A DNA stretch of 64,000 nt, from assembly GCF_017348835.2 (NCBI RefSeq), contig NZ_CP071375.1, one strand, 5' to 3'. Positions 1,775-58,367 of this stretch are shown here, piece by piece. The notes under the pieces are model-generated. The model did no database searches. It was not told where the DNA came from and saw only the letters and a program-made list of their open reading frames with translations. Position 1 is the first letter of the stretch. Each line of letters starts with the position of its first letter. The position numbers were made by a program, and so were the translations under genes. This DNA comes from Escherichia coli (GTDB lineage: Bacteria; Pseudomonadota; Gammaproteobacteria; Enterobacterales; Enterobacteriaceae).

Positions 1775-2629
1775 TTAAATAGAGGCTGCGGGTTGCAGAC
1801 TGACTTTAATGTCAGCCGGTGCCGCGTAATAAGGCGCGGAGGTAATAAAGAGGCGAATGCCGCAGTCGAGGTAATTTTTGAGTGTCGTCAGATTAATTCC
1901 GCCGGTCAGAGCCAGCGTGCAGTGGGGAGCCAGCGACGGCGCTATTTGCGCAATTTCAGTTGCCTGTTGCGGACTAAATTTGTCGAGCTGAAGTACGTCT
2001 GGTTGCGCGCGTAACGCGGCGATTGCCTCTTTCGGCGTGTCGGCTTCAACAACAATTTTCTTCTCGGGTGCGTGGCGACGTAACTGATTGATTGCGCCTG
2101 ACCAGTCCTGATTGTCATGAAGAAAATGGCGGTGGTTGGCAAACAATAATATGGTTTCCGCACATCCGGCACGATGAATCAGTCCTCCGGCAGCCAGAAT
2201 TGCCTGCGAGGCCAGTAAGCGGGTGCCCGGAATTGCTTTTCGGGTGCAGGCGATATTGCCATCAGGATAACGTTCACGAAGTAACGCCAGCATTTGAGCG
2301 AGATAATCAGAAACACCGCAACTCCACTCCAGCACATTCTGGACTGCCTTCCATCCCTGATGAAGTGCTGCGGCATTACCCTGCGCACGGATTAGCCGTT
2401 GACCCGCGTTCGCTTGTGAACCGTCGCTGACCGCGTCCTCAATAGTTAATCCCAGCGTAGTTAACATCTTACACGCGATAGAAACGCCGCTGACGCAGCC
2501 GCCCTGACGGAGAAAAAACTCTATATAGCCATGCTGGTGTCCAATATTTAATGCTCTCGTGGTCAGGTCACCGCCCTGGATATCTTCCAGAAGTAACGCA
2601 TCGATTTGTGCCTGAGAAAGGAAAATCAT
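1775..2629 (-). CDS. ModD-like protein (quinolinate/nicotinate-nucleotide phosphoribosyltransferase paralog)
   Basis: 284 aa ORF; N-terminus MIFLSQAQIDALLLEDIQGGDLTTRAL resembles NadC/ModD family; start overlaps upstream gene stop (ATGA). Confidence 0.65.
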   Translation of the reverse strand: MIFLSQAQIDALLLEDIQGGDLTTRALNIGHQHGYIEFFLRQGGCVSGVSIACKMLTTLGLTIEDAVSDGSQANAGQRLIRAQGNAAALHQGWKAVQNVLEWSCGVSDYLAQMLALLRERYPDGNIACTRKAIPGTRLLASQAILAAGGLIHRAGCAETILLFANHRHFLHDNQDWSGAINQLRRHAPEKKIVVEADTPKEAIAALRAQPDVLQLDKFSPQQATEIAQIAPSLAPHCTLALTGGINLTTLKNYLDCGIRLFITSAPYYAAPADIKVSLQPAASI

Positions 2630-3438
2630 CGCAGTGCCTCCTGCGGTACGCTATCCCACCAGATGAGCGCCCAGTCGCGGCTGGCAGGGGCGAGGGCACG
2701 AGCATCTTGTTGTTGATACCAGCGATATAACCGCTCACGCTCATCGTCGTTAAGCGCGCCAAGACTCCAGCTGACGTTCTGCTCAAAACGTTCCCAGGTG
2801 CTGTTATCCTGTTGGCAATTTTGTCCACGGATAAAATCAACGTGGGCATAAATTCCCATCTGATACAGGACGTTGAGCGCAAAGATATAGTTGGGTAATT
2901 CGATCACTTCCCGACCAGCCGCCCGCTGAATGGCTGGAGAGACGAACGAGGTGCTGACCAGATGAGTCGTATAGACGCGAAGCCGTGCCTGATTATTCAG
3001 TTTGCTCATTGCCTGGCGCATATCAGCCACCAGAGTGGAGCGGGAAGCCACGGCAATATCGCAGCGTGGCAGGTCACTCCAGTCCTCTTCCCAGGCGCGC
3101 TGGATCCAGTGGACATTGTCTGCCTTCAGCGCGGCGGCGCGACGGGCGGCAACGTTCAGCATCCCCTGACTGTAATCAACGCCATAAATCGTCGTGAGTT
3201 TGTCAGCCAGCGCCAGCGATACGGTACCCGGTCCGCAGCCCATATCGAATAAGGTCTGAGCGCCTTGCAGGTCAATTTTAGAGATCAGTTGTTGCAGGTA
3301 GCTGTCCGTTGGCGAGGCGCAATTTTCCGCCATTTTCTCCGCCCGTTGATCCCAGTGATCGGGCGTTTTTTCTGTGCGGTGAGCCAGTTTGAGTTGCTGC
3401 AGATAAAGGTCTGCAAAATCAATATCATCAATGAGCAT
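2626..3438 (-). CDS. class I SAM-dependent methyltransferase
   Basis: 270 aa ORF with motif I LFDMGCGPGTVSLALA and downstream acidic motif YGVDYS. Confidence 0.7.
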   Translation of the reverse strand: MLIDDIDFADLYLQQLKLAHRTEKTPDHWDQRAEKMAENCASPTDSYLQQLISKIDLQGAQTLFDMGCGPGTVSLALADKLTTIYGVDYSQGMLNVAARRAAALKADNVHWIQRAWEEDWSDLPRCDIAVASRSTLVADMRQAMSKLNNQARLRVYTTHLVSTSFVSPAIQRAAGREVIELPNYIFALNVLYQMGIYAHVDFIRGQNCQQDNSTWERFEQNVSWSLGALNDDERERLYRWYQQQDARALAPASRDWALIWWDSVPQEALR

Positions 3439-3447
3439 GATTGTTCC

Positions 3448-4206
3448 TTAGCGGCTAATTGCAGAGAGGTGATGATGAATTTGGTCGGCAGAAACCCGAT
3501 ACAGGGCCGCCAGTTTGTTCGTTGTTAACTGTTCGGTCGGTAAGCCTTGTGTTACTCGTCCATCTGGCTCTACCTGGATAATGCTGTCGGCAATGGCGTT
3601 GGCATGGAGCGGATGGTGAGTCGACATTAACATTGTCATGCCGTTATTTTTGAGCTGCGCCAGCGTGTCCAGTAGTTGGATCTGATGACCGAAATCGAGG
3701 CTGGAGTCAGGCTCATCCAGTAACAACAAGCGCGGTTGCTGGACGAGTGCACGGGCGATTAAAGCCAGCTGACGTTCACCGCCGCTAAGCGTATTCCAGC
3801 GTCGTGCCGCCAGATGCAAAATACCCAGCTTTTCCAGTTGCTCCGTGGCTTTCAGGCGTTCTTGCTTACCGGGAACGGAAAAAGCGCCTATGGTGGGGGC
3901 CAGGCCCATCAACACCATATCCAGCAAACTAAAAGCAAAAATACCGTCGTGCGCCTGCGGCACCCAGGCAATAGCCTGCGCGCGCTGGCGATGGCTGAGT
4001 GTCTGCACAGGGAGGCTATCCAGTAAGACCTCGCCTTTTAATAACGGTATAACGCCAAGAATGGAGCGCATGAGTGTGGTTTTGCCGCAACCATTGGCTC
4101 CTAACAGACAACAAATTGTTCCTTGCGACAGGGTGAAGGACACGTCGCGTAGCACCGGATGGCGGGAGTAACCCAGAGACGCATGACGGACGGCAAGCAA
4201 AGTCAC
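3448..4206 (-). CDS. ABC transporter ATP-binding protein (metal-chelate type importer)
   Basis: Walker A GANGCGKTT, ABC signature LSGGERQ, Walker B LLLDEP. ORF track start at 4344 gives an N-terminal extension overlapping the permease; GTG at 4204-4206 overlaps permease stop (GTGA) and is the more likely start. Confidence 0.85.
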   Translation of the reverse strand: MTLLAVRHASLGYSRHPVLRDVSFTLSQGTICCLLGANGCGKTTLMRSILGVIPLLKGEVLLDSLPVQTLSHRQRAQAIAWVPQAHDGIFAFSLLDMVLMGLAPTIGAFSVPGKQERLKATEQLEKLGILHLAARRWNTLSGGERQLALIARALVQQPRLLLLDEPDSSLDFGHQIQLLDTLAQLKNNGMTMLMSTHHPLHANAIADSIIQVEPDGRVTQGLPTEQLTTNKLAALYRVSADQIHHHLSAISR

Positions 4207-5183
4207 TGGCGACCTCCGCGTAACAACAAAAGCAGGAAAAACGGTGCGCCAACAAAAGCGGTCAGAATGCCAAGTGGGATTTCTGTTGTTCCAATGCTGC
4301 GTGCCAGCGTATCGGTAAGCAGGAGCAGAATCGCGCCAGTACACATTGCCATGGGCAACAGCTGCTGATGGTTATGACCGGTCAACAAGCGGGCAATGTG
4401 CGGAACGACCAGGCCGACCCAACCAATTATGCCCGCTATTGCTACCGAACTGGCGGTGATTAGTGTGGCGCAGACAATCAATCCAAAGCGCAGACGCGTC
4501 ACGTTCAGTCCCAGCGAACGGGCTTCGTCGTCGGAAAGCGTGAGTAAATTCATGCGCCAGCGGAGAAAAAACAGGGGCAAGGAGCCTATGAGAATGATCG
4601 GTGCAGCATAACAGAGATCGCGTAAGGTCACGGTAGACAGTCCCCCCAGCAACCAGAAGGTAATTGACGGTAACTGGGTGTAAGGATCGGCCAGCGTTTT
4701 AATTAGCGATATCCCCGCTCCGCACAACGTTCCTAACGCAATGCCTACCAGCACCAGGGTTAAGATCGGATCGTGGCGGGTCACCCGACGCGTAATCAAC
4801 CAGACGCCCGCGACCACCATCAGCCCGCCGCAAAATGCGTACAGCTGGATGTAAACAATGGATAATCCCCACAGAATTGCCGTGCAGGCACCAAGTCCGG
4901 CACCGGCGGAGACGCCTAAAATATCCGGTGAAACTAAGGGATTACGCAATATTCCCTGATAGGTGGTTCCGGCTCCTGCCAGCGCCGCGCCCAGTAACAG
5001 CGCAGCAAGAATACGCGGCACGCGGATTTGCCAGAAGACAATTTGTTCCTGCACAGGAACATTTTCTTGACGAAGAATTAGCGCCAGCAGTTGCTGCATA
5101 TCGAGATGATAAGCCCCACTTACGGCGGCAAAAGTGATACTGATAGCTGCCAGCAGCAAAATACATCCGTTTGCGATTCTCAT
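4203..5183 (-). CDS. FecCD-family ABC permease
   Basis: 326 aa highly hydrophobic ORF with multi-TM pattern typical of FecD/BtuC permeases; start overlaps upstream gene stop. Confidence 0.8.
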   Translation of the reverse strand: MRIANGCILLLAAISITFAAVSGAYHLDMQQLLALILRQENVPVQEQIVFWQIRVPRILAALLLGAALAGAGTTYQGILRNPLVSPDILGVSAGAGLGACTAILWGLSIVYIQLYAFCGGLMVVAGVWLITRRVTRHDPILTLVLVGIALGTLCGAGISLIKTLADPYTQLPSITFWLLGGLSTVTLRDLCYAAPIILIGSLPLFFLRWRMNLLTLSDDEARSLGLNVTRLRFGLIVCATLITASSVAIAGIIGWVGLVVPHIARLLTGHNHQQLLPMAMCTGAILLLLTDTLARSIGTTEIPLGILTAFVGAPFFLLLLLRGGRQ

Positions 5184-30431: not shown

Positions 30432-31295
<864 letters not shown>

Positions 31296-31315
31296 TCTTT
31301 TTTGCTTGAAAAATA

Positions 31316-31347
31316 AAGTCTTAGCGTTCTGCGTTAAGACTTTTTTC
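31316..31347 (+). terminator. rho-independent terminator after kdsA
   Basis: Hairpin gtcttagcg-ttct-gcgttaagac followed by tttttt. Confidence 0.65.
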
Positions 31348-31360
31348 ATGGGTGCCGGAT

Positions 31361-31895
31361 ACAAAAAAGGCCGCAGGCTGTTACCCTGCGGCCGGTTTCG
31401 GGCGCATATTGCCATCACGGCAGCCTGACGCCCGTTTTCGCCTTACTTCCGGTTACGCCACCAGCCGACAATCGCTGCGGTAATAATTCCCGCCAGGATC
31501 GGTGCTGCCAGGTCGTGCCAGAAAATCATGGCAAACTGCGCGAGCGTCATATAGCCGCCTTGTTGTAATGACAACATTTTGCGGCTATTCTTGAATTGTT
31601 GATGGTTCAAGATTAGCCCCCGTTCTGTTGTCAGGTTTTACCTCTCAACGTGCGGGGGTTTTCTCTTTCCAGCAACCAATGCCACCAGGGATAAAGCCCC
31701 CGCAACATTGCGCCTCACCGGATAACGCCGGCTTGGTGTGGATACTACGACTCAATTCATCTTCACTTCATCCCTGAAATGTTTGCAATGAAGAGTGCAT
31801 TCCGGTTTTTCAACAGCTGTTACAGTCGTTTCATGAGTGCTCTGGATGATGCTTCCAGCTCGGGTTGCCAATATTTACTTGTGGAAGTGATAAAG
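31361..31895 (-). repeat. LDR (long direct repeat) copy 1, ldr/rdl type I toxin-antitoxin unit (~535 bp)
   Basis: About 535-bp unit repeated in tandem (copy 2 begins 31896) with few mismatches; contains 35-aa Ldr ORF. Confidence 0.85.
31443..31550 (-). CDS. ldr: Ldr-family type I toxin peptide (35 aa)
   Basis: Minus-strand translation MTLAQFAMIFWHDLAAPILAGIITAAIVGWWRNRK; too short for ORF track; matches Ldr toxin family. Confidence 0.85.
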   Translation of the reverse strand: MTLAQFAMIFWHDLAAPILAGIITAAIVGWWRNRK

Positions 31896-32190
31896 ACAAA
31901 AATGGCCGCAGGCTGTTACCCCTGCGGCCGGTTTCGGGCGCATATTGCCATCACGGCAGCCTGACGCCCGTTTTCACCTTACTTCCGGTTACGCCACCAG
32001 CCGACAATCGCTGCGGTAATAATTCCCGCCAGGATCGGTGCCGCCAGGTCGTGCCAGAAAGTCATGGCAAACTGCGCGAGCGTCATATAGCCGCCTTGTT
32101 GTAATGACAACATTTTGCGGCTATTCTTGAAGTGTCTGGTTTCAAGATTAGCCCCCGTTCTGTTGTCAGGTTTTACCTCTCAACGTGCGG
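31896..32190 (-). repeat. LDR copy 2, proximal part (interrupted by IS4)
   Basis: Near-identical to 31361-31655; continues after IS4 at 33617. Confidence 0.85.
31979..32086 (-). CDS. ldr: Ldr-family type I toxin peptide (35 aa), copy 2
   Basis: Minus-strand translation MTLAQFAMTFWHDLAAPILAGIITAAIVGWWRNRK (I9T relative to copy 1). Confidence 0.85.
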   Translation of the reverse strand: MTLAQFAMTFWHDLAAPILAGIITAAIVGWWRNRK

Positions 32191-33616
32191 TAATGCCAGT
32201 CAGTTAAGCAACTGACTGGCTCTTTTTCGGGGCTGTGGGGTATTTCCAGGGCCTCTCCTTTACCACTCTCGGGAAGGCCCTTTCCCTTCTTGTCGGTAAT
32301 TTCACAAGTTGTCCCATACTTGCAAGATCGCGCATCAGCTCCGGTATACGTCCCGGTGAAGCGCCCTGCAATGTCATCAGCATTCTCATCACCATTCCGC
32401 ATGATTCTGAGAAGCTCAGTTGATTTGGCCAGTAACCTTTCAGATGTTCCGCCATTTTAATCATCTGATATCTCACCAGATTATAAGCCAGTAAGACACC
32501 CCACAGCTCTTGCTCCACAAGCTCAGGCTTTTTACTTCTCAGCGTCAGCCTGCTCAGTTGCATCGTCTGTTTTATCTCCCTGTATCCCAGTTCGATTTCC
32601 CAGCGATGACTGTACAGATCCGCCATTTCTCCTCCGGGGAAGCGCATGGCGTCCGTCATCGACGTCAGCAGATGGCAGACTTTTCCTTTGCGCGTCACGG
32701 TCAGCAGGCGGGCTGTCACCTCATTTCCCAGTCCCGGCCACTTTTTTCGTGCCTGCGGGCTGGTTTTCAGCTTCACCAGATGATCGCCTTTACCCAGTTT
32801 TCTGATCTCTTCATATTGCGCTCCCTTTCTGAGAGGGATCATCCAGTGGCGGTGTTCTCCCGCCAGGCTCCAGGCATTTAACAATCCCAGTGAGTAATAA
32901 CCTTTATCCATTAACGTCAGAGTGTTATCGCCGGTTTGTTCTATAAGTTGCTCAGCAAGCTCATTTTCGCTGTTCTTCATCGTGCCGAAGGCTGCAGCCG
33001 TCAGCAGATGGCTGGTCAGTTCCATCTGGCAGACCATTTTGACCTGCGGGTAGAGCGCCGGGGTCCCGGCATGTGTCTGGCGAGGGAAGGCTGCATCGTT
33101 CTCTGGTGTATCCGGTGTGCGCCAGAACACACCATCGATGGCCAGCAGGGTCAGGCCGCACCAGTGCGGATGCGGCGTGGCGTTATGCCAGAGCTGCGCT
33201 GTTTTCGTGAACACGCGGCGGACAGCCTCACTTCCCAGGCGCTGGCGGGCCTGAATAACAGCACTGGGGGCAACGAAGGTGCGATTGCCCGGCAGCATGA
33301 TGTCCAGGCGATTCACAATCTGGTGAAGAGGTTCTTTACGCTCAAGCGCCATGCCAACAATACACCAGACCATCATTTCGAGGGGAAGACGGCGCTTGCG
33401 TAGCGTTACAGTACCTGATTCGGCAAGGCAACGAGAGATGAGTTCGGGGTCGAGGTAATCTCCCAGAGAAGTCAGTGGGTTACGCAGAGAATCGTAACGG
33501 GATACCAGATCAAGAGCCTGTCCAATGTGCATAAAAAAATCCGGAAACGAGTGAGCGTTTCCGGATTCTTACACAGCCACTGGATCGGTCAACTGATCCT
33601 TAACTGATCGGCATTA
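32191..33616 (-). mobile_element. IS4-like insertion sequence, copy 1 (1426 bp)
   Basis: 18-bp imperfect terminal inverted repeats taatgccagtcagttaag / cttaactgatcggcatta; single 442-aa transposase; flanked by 12-bp direct repeats ctcaacgtgcgg (32179-32190 and 33617-33628). Confidence 0.9.
32204..33532 (-). CDS. IS4-family transposase (DDE)
   Basis: 442 aa [33 protein letters not shown]...; length and sequence consistent with IS4 transposase. Confidence 0.88.
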
Positions 33617-33795
33617 CTCAACGTGCGGGGGTTTTCTCTTTCCAGCAACCAATGCCACCAGGGATAAAGCCCCCGCAACATTGCGCCTCACCGGATAACG
33701 CCGGCTTGGTGTGGATACTACGTCTCAATTCATCTTCACTTCATCCCTGAAGTGTTTGCAATGAAGAGTACATTCCGGCTTTTCAACAGCTGTTG
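33617..33795 (-). repeat. LDR copy 2, distal part (ldr leader/promoter and rdl region) displaced by IS4
   Basis: Matches 31644-31825 of copy 1 then diverges. Confidence 0.8.
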
Positions 33796-33928
33796 CAGTG
33801 GTTTCGTGCAGGTTGTGGTACAGGCTCGCAATTCTGATTAACGACCTGTCCAGGTAGTATGAAGAAATACAATAAGCAGGAATTTATATTATCTCCCCCG
33901 ATTTCCGTCATCGGAGGAGATATAACTG

Positions 33929-35029
33929 TCAGGCAAATATCGTCATCAAATAGGCGGCAAACAGTGCCAGATGCGCTGCGCCATTGAGCACGTTAGTACG
34001 TCCGGTGGAGAAGGAGATATGGCACAGCACTAAAGAGGCCACCATCACCACCATTTCTGGCGCACCAAGTGCAAACTGCAATTCGTTACCCGTCATAAAG
34101 GCAATTAGCGTGACGACAGGTACGGTAAGCGAAATTGTTGCTAACACTGAACCAAAGAACAGATTCATCGCGCGCTGGACCTGGTTGTTCAACACTGCTT
34201 TTAATGCACCTAAACCTTCCGGCGACAGAATCAACAGTGCCACCAGGAAGCCAGTAAAGGCGACAGGGGCATTCATGCTGTCGAGCAAAGTCTCCAGCGG
34301 GCTGGCGTTCATTTTGGTGACTGCAATAACGGCAATCAGGTGGATAATCAACCAGATAGCATGCCACAGGCTGCTATGGGCAGATGGTTTACCGTGATGC
34401 GGGTCGTCATCATCACTGTCATCTTCGTGCTCGTAGACAAACAAACTTTGATGCGTTTTGGTCTGGATCAGCAAAAATACGCCATACATTGCCGCAGAAA
34501 TTAATGCTACCAGTAACGCCTGACCGGTTGAAAAATTCGCCGCAGGCAGAGCCATTGGAAATACCAGTACGATTATCGCCAGGGGGAACAGCGCAATTAA
34601 ATACTGCTTGATACCAAACAGATTCATATATTGGGTGGCAAACTTACGACCGCCCAACAATAATGAAAAGCCAACCAGCCCACCGGTAACAATCATAATG
34701 ATTGAATAGAGCGTATCACGCATTAGCGTTGGCGCGGCGTCGCCGGTTGCCATTAAAGCTGAAATCAAACTGACTTCAAGAATAACCACTGAAAGGCTAA
34801 GAATAAGCGAACCGTAAGGTTCTCCCAGGCGATGGGCTAATACGTCCGCATGACGGACAACACTAAAGGCGCTACTTAAAATACCAATAAGCGCAAGAAG
34901 ATTGATGGCAATGACCACTGGTAGTGTCTGGCTGCTTCCCCACAGGAACAGCACTACCAGCGCCAGAACCGGGAAAATAAGCGAAGTCTCCTTGTGGCGG
35001 GTTTTTACCGCCTCTTGAGCATTTGACAT
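33929..35029 (-). CDS. chaA: Na+(Ca2+)/H+ antiporter
   Basis: MSNAQEAVKTRHKETSLIFPVLALVVLFLWG... matches ChaA (366 aa); ORF track entry has 29-aa upstream extension. Confidence 0.93.
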   Translation of the reverse strand: MSNAQEAVKTRHKETSLIFPVLALVVLFLWGSSQTLPVVIAINLLALIGILSSAFSVVRHADVLAHRLGEPYGSLILSLSVVILEVSLISALMATGDAAPTLMRDTLYSIIMIVTGGLVGFSLLLGGRKFATQYMNLFGIKQYLIALFPLAIIVLVFPMALPAANFSTGQALLVALISAAMYGVFLLIQTKTHQSLFVYEHEDDSDDDDPHHGKPSAHSSLWHAIWLIIHLIAVIAVTKMNASPLETLLDSMNAPVAFTGFLVALLILSPEGLGALKAVLNNQVQRAMNLFFGSVLATISLTVPVVTLIAFMTGNELQFALGAPEMVVMVASLVLCHISFSTGRTNVLNGAAHLALFAAYLMTIFA

Positions 35030-35298
35030 TATGGTTATCCCTTTGCAGATGAATTTATCGAAAATGTAAAAAATAGGTAGGAAAAATAACAGAAAGTGTC
35101 TGGATATCGGTAACATTTTACGAATTTTTACCCCGCTGTCGATTTTTTACTCATTGGGACATAAAAATAAGTAATACGTTTAGACAATGTTTGTTTTAGC
35201 GTTTCTTAAGAACAGTCTGACATGAAAATTCTCATGTTTTGGCAAGAGTAGATATTGTTGACCACACTTAATGTTCAACTTTGTAAAAGGAGTCAACG

Positions 35299-56941: not shown

Positions 56942-58367
56942 TAATGCCAGTCAGTTAAGCAACTGACTGGCTCTTTTTCGGGGCTGTGGGGTATTTCCAG
57001 GGCCTCTCCTTTACCACTCTCGGGAAGGCCCTTTCCCTTCTTGTCGGTAATTTCACAAGTTGTCCCATACTTGCAAGATCGCGCATCAGCTCCGGTATAC
57101 GTCCCGGTGAAGCGCCCTGCAATGTCATCAGCATTCTCATCACCATTCCGCATGATTCTGAGAAGCTCAGTTGATTTGGCCAGTAACCTTTCAGATGTTC
57201 CGCCATTTTAATCATCTGATATCTCACCAGATTATAAGCCAGTAAGACACCCCACAGCTCTTGCTCCACAAGCTCAGGCTTTTTACTTCTCAGCGTCAGC
57301 CTGCTCAGTTGCATCGTCTGTTTTATCTCCCTGTATCCCAGTTCGATTTCCCAGCGATGACTGTACAGATCCGCCATTTCTCCTCCGGGGAAGCGCATGG
57401 CGTCCGTCATCGACGTCAGCAGATGGCAGACTTTTCCTTTGCGCGTCACGGTCAGCAGGCGGGCTGTCACCTCATTTCCCAGTCCCGGCCACTTTTTTCG
57501 TGCCTGCGGGCTGGTTTTCAGCTTCACCAGATGATCGCCTTTACCCAGTTTTCTGATCTCTTCATATTGCGCTCCCTTTCTGAGAGGGATCATCCAGTGG
57601 CGGTGTTCTCCCGCCAGGCTCCAGGCATTTAACAATCCCAGTGAGTAATAACCTTTATCCATTAACGTCAGAGTGTTATCGCCGGTTTGTTCTATAAGTT
57701 GCTCAGCAAGCTCATTTTCGCTGTTCTTCATCGTGCCGAAGGCTGCAGCCGTCAGCAGATGGCTGGTCAGTTCCATCTGGCAGACCATTTTGACCTGCGG
57801 GTAGAGCGCCGGGGTCCCGGCATGTGTCTGGCGAGGGAAGGCTGCATCGTTCTCTGGTGTATCCGGTGTGCGCCAGAACACACCATCGATGGCCAGCAGG
57901 GTCAGGCCGCACCAGTGCGGATGCGGCGTGGCGTTATGCCAGAGCTGCGCTGTTTTCGTGAACACGCGGCGGACAGCCTCACTTCCCAGGCGCTGGCGGG
58001 CCTGAATAACAGCACTGGGGGCAACGAAGGTGCGATTGCCCGGCAGCATGATGTCCAGGCGATTCACAATCTGGTGAAGAGGTTCTTTACGCTCAAGCGC
58101 CATGCCAACAATACACCAGACCATCATTTCGAGGGGAAGACGGCGCTTGCGTAGCGTTACAGTACCTGATTCGGCAAGGCAACGAGAGATGAGTTCGGGG
58201 TCGAGGTAATCTCCCAGAGAAGTCAGTGGGTTACGCAGAGAATCGTAACGGGATACCAGATCAAGAGCCTGTCCAATGTGCATAAAAAAATCCGGAAACG
58301 AGTGAGCGTTTCCGGATTCTTACACAGCCACTGGATCGGTCAACTGATCCTTAACTGATCGGCATTA
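56942..58367 (-). mobile_element. IS4-like insertion sequence, copy 2 (1426 bp)
   Basis: Same terminal repeats and identical transposase ORF as copy 1; flanked by 12-bp direct repeats ccccagaagggg (56930-56941 and 58368-58379). Confidence 0.9.
56955..58283 (-). CDS. IS4-family transposase (DDE)
   Basis: 442 aa, identical in the ORF track to the 32204-33532 protein. Confidence 0.88.

Follow-up and report, generated by a model that had tools for sequence, protein, structure and literature searches.

What becomes of a toxin gene and of the antisense RNA that controls it when a mobile element lands in the DNA the two share? This question is raised by a locus in a 64,000-nucleotide stretch of Escherichia coli DNA (contig NZ_CP071375.1 of assembly GCF_017348835.2; the whole stretch is called the window below), where a copy of the insertion sequence (IS) IS4 splits the second of two long direct repeat (LDR) units, each of which codes for an Ldr toxin and an Rdl antisense RNA. 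A preliminary description of this DNA had proposed that the insertion uncouples the second toxin gene, ldr-2, both from its promoter and from its antisense regulator. Judging from sequence and RNA folding, we consider it probable that IS4 turned unit 2 into a promoterless, near-neutral knockout of a redundant toxin copy with its antitoxin cover kept, and not into a deregulated toxin gene.

IS4 in the second LDR unit

The segment at positions 30441-35116 of the window carries, in this order, kdsA (+), two LDR repeats and chaA (-), and the same locus in E. coli K-12 reads ldrA-rdlA-ldrB-rdlB-ldrC-rdlC. Repeat analysis of the window gave a direct-repeat period of 535/536 bp with 98-100% identity, in agreement with the ~530-bp repeat that characterizes LDR units between kdsA and chaA; the locus is the known kdsA-chaA LDR array of Ldr toxin/Rdl antisense type I toxin-antitoxin repeats (for LDR-A/B/C and LDR-D of E. 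coli K-12: Kawano et al., 2002, as cited in PMC4147584). Both units encode a 35-aa Ldr peptide on the minus strand (coordinates of all features in Table 1), as the preliminary description had reported. The two peptides differ at one residue (I vs T, an ATT vs an ACT codon), and further nucleotide differences also set the two genes apart; compared with the K-12 peptides, that of ldr-1 is LdrA-like except for S29G and that of ldr-2 equals LdrB. The ldr-2 peptide matched the Pfam family Ldr_toxin (PF13940) over its full length (1-35/35, E 3.3e-26), and a search of NCBIfam with the 35-aa peptides returned no matching model. Overproduced LdrD is toxic, an effect countered by RdlD (PMC4147584).

The element in unit 2 is a complete IS4. 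Its terminal inverted repeats are imperfect (16 of the first 18 positions match), its transposase scored 305.4 bits against NF033592 (cutoff 115), as expected of a DDE transposase of the IS4 family, and the 12-bp duplication that surrounds it, CTCAACGTGCGG on both sides, falls in the range of 11-13 bp found among the IS4 copies compared here. Counted from the A of the ldr-2 ATG, the final leader base ahead of IS4 lies at -104 and the first base of IS4 at -105, reproducing the distance of 105 bp and the duplication given earlier. When IS4 and one copy of the duplication were removed in silico, an LDR unit was restored that is near-identical to K-12 LDR-B on the side of the open reading frame (ORF) and to LDR-C on the chaA side; by alignment to K-12 LDR-A/B/C, unit 2 thus resembles a B/C recombinant. 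Tandem repeats together with a multicopy IS are typical sources of misassembly, and an assembly or collapse artefact in this repeat-rich region was accordingly considered; the perfect duplication, the exact length of the element and the recurrence of the same architecture in independently sequenced complete genomes leave it next to no probability.

The preliminary description had placed IS4 in the ldr leader/rdl antisense region, and the position can be given more closely: IS4 sits in the ldr-2 leader and, on the other strand, inside rdl-2, whose terminator stem it breaks in the 3' half. The start of rdl-2 lies 48 nt ahead of the ldr-2 ATG, and its transcription proceeds away from the ORF; K-12 rdlA/B/C are annotated likewise. 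While rdl-1 is complete and folds into a long hairpin followed by a U-run, rdl-2 has lost the 3' arm of its terminator stem and the U-run, with IS4 in their place. The match of rdl-2 to the Rfam model remains above the gathering score of 50, and the lower-stem pairs are broken exactly at the IS4 junction.

In the first unit, the Rfam family 'sok' (RF01794) matched the ldr-1 leader weakly (31548-31701, minus strand; 27 bits vs a gathering score of 59, E 0.005). We took this match to be probably a chance or at most a distant resemblance, although the literature regards ldr/rdl as hok/sok-like.

Predicted expression of ldr-2 and rdl-2

Transcription of ldrD in K-12 starts at 3700272, 185 nt upstream of the ATG (PMC7967276 supplement), and a conserved -10 box lies 8 nt upstream of this mapped transcription start site (TSS; TAGAAT in LDR-D, TAGTAT in the window). 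Transferred by alignment, the ldr-2 TSS falls at about 33707 and its -10 box at 33715-33720, both on the far (chaA) side of IS4. The element enters at +91 of the 183-nt ldr-2 leader, so that +1 to +91 stand on the chaA side. The kdsA side keeps +80 to +183 (104 nt, of which the duplication is a part) along with the intact ORF and its terminator. A toxin ORF contiguous with its promoter through a leader of ~184 nt is therefore found in unit 1, by homology, and not in unit 2, and the part of the earlier proposal that concerns the promoter stands.

The preliminary description had also named the circumstance that would leave the unit intact, namely an ldr promoter between the ATG and the insertion point. 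A working or second promoter there would keep unit 2 functional, and a shorter RNA seen in rnc mutants, 'ldrD short', could in principle stem from such an internal start (PMC7373196). The authors of that study, however, suggest that it could have arisen either as an alternative transcript or by degradation of the full-length RNA (PMC7373196); the mapped ldrD TSS corresponds to a position past the insertion point; and neither the promoter scan nor a looser custom scan found a sigma-70-like site with at least 8/12 matches between IS4 and the ldr-2 ATG (32087-32190, minus strand). We hold an internal promoter to be highly improbable. Within the first 500 bp of IS4, the scan returned one weak 8/12 promoter match, deep within the transposase ORF.

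The antisense part of the proposed uncoupling did not hold up. The promoter-like site of rdl-2 is retained beside the ORF, as are 57 of the 66 nt of the RNA gene, and Rdl-1 and Rdl-2 are 100% identical across 50 nt. Rdl overlaps the ldr 5' untranslated region (UTR), not the ribosome-binding site (PMC4147584), and what is left of the ldr-2 leader still contains all of the retained sequence that pairs with Rdl, as well as the structure predicted around the ldr start codon. Because the promoter is lost, whereas the rdl-2 promoter and most of rdl-2 are kept and Rdl-1 is identical, ldr-2 has most likely become a silenced copy, devoid of a promoter but still within reach of antisense RNA. It would be essentially silent, with at most weak read-through from the co-oriented IS4 transposase gene, and any ldr-2 transcript would carry the Rdl target together with a structured translation-initiation region and could pair with Rdl-1, acting in trans, as well as with a chimeric Rdl-2.

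A leader ORF, ldrX, has been proposed to couple translation (PMC4147584; PMC8167048). Among the candidates in the leader, the ORFs starting at GTG +17 and ATG +27 are cut off from ldr-2 by IS4, and the ORF starting at TTG +125, which ends on the ldr start codon, is kept beside it; these candidates are inconsistently conserved among LDR-A, B, C and D.

The opposite outcome is the one put forward in the preliminary description: ldr-2 is freed from promoter and antisense control, and read-through from IS4 drives an unregulated toxin that is potentially harmful or controlled by the element. Read-through from the transposase gene, which is co-oriented with ldr-2, may occur, since the hairpin past the transposase stop codon has no U-run on that strand, and we see no other route by which ldr-2 could be transcribed; the removal of the leader ORFs from +17 and +27 would fit such a release as well. 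This account has to contend, however, with the rdl-2 promoter and the 57 of 66 nt still beside the ORF, with the identity of Rdl-1 over 50 nt, and with a remnant leader that retains both the Rdl-pairing region and the start-codon structure. Moreover, no fewer than four further wild isolates carry the allele, in either orientation, and in one of them the transposase points away from ldr, indicating that the locus tolerates IS4 regardless of read-through. A freed toxin is in our estimate unlikely.

We therefore return to a silenced ldr-2 with its antitoxin cover kept, and set out what weighs against it. In the folded minus strand, the right-end hairpin of IS4 is followed by AUUACCGCACG without a U-run, so that transposase read-through into ldr-2 may occur. 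The consequences for both genes are drawn from sequence and folding, and the silence of ldr-2, the termination of a chimeric Rdl-2 and the block at the left end of IS4 are all predictions. The TSS of units of the LDR-A/B/C type is transferred by homology from LDR-D, the only unit for which a mapped TSS was found, and we assume, given the sequence identity, that Rdl-1 can act in trans on ldr-2 transcripts. Finally, the number of independent insertions at this site, given below, may be inflated by recombination or by gene conversion among IS4 copies, which leaves the case in opposite orientation unaffected.

As regards the antisense RNA, transcription from the retained rdl-2 promoter would run 5 nt into IS4 and then meet an 11-bp hairpin (32195-32220) followed by UCUUUUU, giving a chimeric Rdl-2::IS4 RNA of ~95 nt. 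Both this right-end hairpin and the preserved upper Rdl hairpin are present in the minimum-free-energy fold of 32134-32230, and the hairpin at the IS4 end can, by its predicted structure, replace the lost Rdl-2 terminator. Transcripts from the orphan ldr-2 promoter would enter the other end of IS4 and stop at a 14-bp hairpin with U7 ahead of the transposase ATG. Both IS4 ends fit, as a sequence pattern, an intrinsic terminator (GC-rich hairpin, then U-run). Part of the left-end hairpin coincides with the predicted promoter and 5' UTR of the transposase, and transcription from this promoter would start inside the hairpin, which is the usual arrangement shielding transposases from outside transcription.

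If the reading we prefer is right, the locus illustrates neatly, in a natural isolate, how a single insertion where the two genes of a divergent type I pair overlap disables the toxin and keeps the antitoxin cover; loss of the toxin under continued cover would explain why such alleles survive.

Target sites of IS4 and recurrence at rdl

The window holds a second IS4, between tdk and adhE, identical to the first over its whole length. It also lies at the top of a hairpin (AAAAAAACGG-CCCCAGAAGGGG-CCGTTT) and is flanked by a 12-bp duplication, CCCCAGAAGGGG. The widespread copy between ravA and kup, to which the window IS4 is 99% identical, has a similar target, CTCAAAGGGGGG then GTATTTTTC. We surveyed the left ends of IS4 in one genome per species (120 loci across many genera; 113 flanks analysed). 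TTTT was found at +13..+26 in 81 of the 113 flanks from other genera, vs 5% of background positions; the T-run lay 3-10 nt past the duplication in 81/113 flanks, and the frequency of T reached 80-85% at +17..+19. Ten complete IS4 copies allowed the targets to be reconstructed, which took the form of an A-run, a GC hairpin and a T-run with the duplication at the hairpin top; most of these targets are symmetric, as seen when the orientation of IS4 was compared with the T-run. Copies in Kosakonia, Budvicia, Aeromonas, Silvania, Dryocola, Photorhabdus and others sit almost all in terminator-like sites. As judged from these flanks, IS4 is shown to prefer terminator-like DNA, a GC hairpin followed by a T-run, of which the 12 bp at the hairpin top are duplicated.

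We then scored the IS4-free window with a 24-nt matrix built from the foreign flanks. Among 122,202 positions, the tdk-adhE site came 1st and the two rdl sites, in exact register, 19th and 20th, which puts the rdl site within the top 0.02% of window positions. IS4 thus transposed into the second LDR unit because the Rdl terminator suits it well as a target, matching the preference of the element. These data mark the Rdl terminator as a recurrent IS4 target that can be predicted from sequence, and support a homing of IS4 to intrinsic terminators, which bears on how IS4 positions in Escherichia and Shigella are read and on the prediction of landing sites.

For some elements of the IS4 subgroup, a 'spectacular' conservation in the arms of the target has been described (PMC2266710). 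Our literature searches found no explicit published statement that IS4 targets terminators. A consensus of AAAN20TTT has reportedly been given for IS4 targets, and Mayaux is said to have described in 1984 an IS4 insertion in the pheST attenuator. The preference is comparable to that of IS elements directed to repetitive extragenic palindromic (REP) sequences (IS1397/ISKpn1, ISRm22; PMC1525189), in that the transposase picks small intergenic sequences able to form hairpins and so limits damage to the host. It differs in that the IS4 targets found here are terminator-like sequences (a GC hairpin between A and T runs) and not REP elements.

An inward-facing hairpin with a U-run lies within about 40-85 bp of both IS4 ends, so that transcripts which formerly stopped at the target terminator would still stop there, in either orientation of the element. 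This raises the idea that IS4 is a specialized 'terminator hunter' that makes good the damage it does, inserting at the top of intrinsic-terminator hairpins and replacing them with its own inward terminators. We put this forward tentatively, as somewhat less than an even chance. At the rdl site, it would mean that the antitoxin becomes a chimeric Rdl::IS4 small RNA and that the toxin is silenced.

Junction searches among 5426 complete E. coli genomes found the same IS4 junctions in the same orientation in strains PE164, RM8082 and SW07164. PF9285 has an array of three units; in the middle one, IS4 occupies the identical rdl nucleotide and is flanked by the same duplication, but is oriented the other way (locus coordinates 2571-3996). 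The allele is rare (4/5426). The IS4 sequences differ by 13-15 single-nucleotide polymorphisms (SNPs) between the three lineages (window and PE164; RM8082 and SW07164; PF9285), and in the flanks RM8082 is separated from insertion-free K-12 by 2 SNPs but from the window by 12. Given the opposite orientation, the SNPs within IS4 and the closeness of the K-12 flanks to RM8082, the sequences point to at least two, and probably three, independent insertion events at this site.

The repeated striking of one nucleotide, at least twice and probably three times, could also reflect positive selection (for loss of a toxin copy, an altered Rdl dose or altered transcription on the chaA side) in place of a hot spot, and in the two SCPM-O-B genomes another IS, IS150, breaks the leader of a different LDR unit (junction mapped in SCPM-O-B-9504). 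Yet the rdl site was predicted from the IS4 flanks of unrelated genera alone, with the ranks given above, and the allele is rare, occurs in both orientations and involves different units of the array. Selection as the source of the recurrence appears very unlikely to us, and a target hot spot remains the explanation we adopt.

Two groups of matches from the searches were set aside. The two SCPM-O-B genomes gave matches that resembled the same IS4 allele, but in SCPM-O-B-9504 (locus ~1922-4804), the unit-1 ldr leader is broken at ~+14..+19 by IS150, and the IS4 is nested inside IS150. The matches in the sister strain SCPM-O-B-7615 followed the same pattern, the junction having been mapped only in SCPM-O-B-9504. 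Similarly, IS4 near ldrD in ~16 genomes, beside a split bcsG, was rejected as an LDR-D insertion, since in ECKH-505, the one genome inspected, the element lies inside bcsG. There, IS4 (2006-3431 of the locus) splits bcsG, which codes for cellulose phosphoethanolamine transferase, at a coding-region site 1.4 kb from ldrD, with a 13-bp duplication, CAGATGATTGGGG.

Features of the window and known counterparts

Table 1. Positions of the LDR, rdl and IS4 features in the window, with the basis of each call (CDS, coding sequence; PGAP, Prokaryotic Genome Annotation Pipeline).
Feature	Coordinates	Strand	Basis
LDR unit 1, intact, closest to K-12 LDR-A	31361..31895	-	repeat families D2-D4; alignment to K-12 LDR-A/B/C
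ldr-1 intrinsic terminator, hairpin then T-run	31369..31393	-	terminator scan
ldr-1 CDS, 35 aa, MTLAQFAMIFWHDLAAPILAGIITAAIVGWWRNRK (…FAMIFWHD…)	31443..31550	-	ORF list; same ORF annotated as Ldr family toxin by PGAP in PE164
rdl-1 antisense RNA gene, complete	31599..31664	+	Rfam RF01813 rdlD, 83.6 bits (gathering 50), model 1-66; fold
ldr-1 -10 box TAGTAT (31742-31747) and inferred TSS 31734; 5' UTR 184 nt	31734..31747	-	ldrD TSS transferred by alignment; -10 match
LDR unit 2, ORF-proximal part: terminator, ldr-2 ORF, 104-nt leader remnant	31896..32190	-	repeats, alignment
ldr-2 intrinsic terminator	31904..31929	-	terminator scan
ldr-2 CDS, 35 aa (…FAMTFWHD…), intact, predicted promoterless	31979..32086	-	ORF list; Pfam PF13940
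rdl-2 promoter-like site TTGTAA-17-TATTCT, retained, identical to the site before rdl-1	32099..32127	+	custom scan, 8/12 matches; position relative to Rfam/K-12 rdl start
rdl-2, 3'-truncated, 57/66 nt left	32134..32190	+	Rfam RF01813, 55.1 bits
Target-site duplication, left copy, CTCAACGTGCGG	32179..32190	.	12 bp, perfect
IS4, complete, 1426 bp, transposase co-oriented with ldr	32191..33616	-	boundaries, profile match; no differences from the second window copy
Right-end IS4 hairpin, inward-facing, 11 bp (32195-32220), then UCUUUUU	32195..32228	+	terminator scan; fold of 32134-32230
IS4 transposase CDS, 442 aa	32204..33532	-	ORF list; NF033592 transpos_IS4_1
Left-end IS4 hairpin, inward-facing, 14-bp stem and U7, directly before the transposase ATG	33535..33570	-	inverted repeat I4; fold
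IS4 transposase promoter-like site TTGACC-16-AAGAAT, with TG	33565..33592	-	promoter scan
Target-site duplication, right copy, CTCAACGTGCGG	33617..33628	.	12 bp, perfect
LDR unit 2, promoter-proximal part: orphan ldr-2 promoter, TSS, first 91 leader nt	33617..33830	-	repeat D1, offset 1973; alignment
Second IS4, between tdk and adhE, in bidirectional terminator hairpin, duplication CCCCAGAAGGGG	56942..58367	-	0/1426 differences from the first copy

The toxin-antitoxin repeat and the IS are both textbook elements, and the insertion is a natural, undescribed allele of known elements that brings no new kind of system. What is new is modest: where precisely in the Rdl terminator IS4 sits, its recurrence at one nucleotide, and the inward terminator-like hairpins at both ends of IS4. 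Like IS4 of E. coli K-12, the founder of the IS4 family (ISfinder IS4), the window copy has 1426 bp, imperfect repeats of ~18 bp and one 442-aa DDE transposase; nothing structural distinguishes it, and its chromosomal location is new. With the K-12 LDR-A/B/C array, the window shares the locus, the ~535-bp repeat, the 35-aa Ldr, the placement of rdl, the -10 box, the leader and the terminators. It departs from K-12 in having two units against three, and in that the unit next to chaA is a B/C hybrid, which IS4 splits inside the terminator of Rdl. The number of units between kdsA and chaA is variable, with two in the window, PE164 and RM8082 and three in K-12, SW07164 and PF9285.

Chromosomal hok/sok loci of E. 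coli K-12 are reportedly inactivated by IS elements (IS150, IS186), as Pedersen and Gerdes are said to have described in 1999. That case resembles the present one in that a chromosomal type I toxin-antitoxin copy is disabled by an IS with the toxin ORF intact, and differs in the toxin family and the IS involved; here, the IS lies inside the gene for the antitoxin RNA, upstream of the toxin ORF.

E. coli PE164 (pig, China) nearly matches the window, with 2 differences in 8.6 kb. In that genome, PGAP annotates the Ldr ORFs and, as 'IS4-like element IS4 family transposase', the transposase of IS4, and leaves rdl unannotated.

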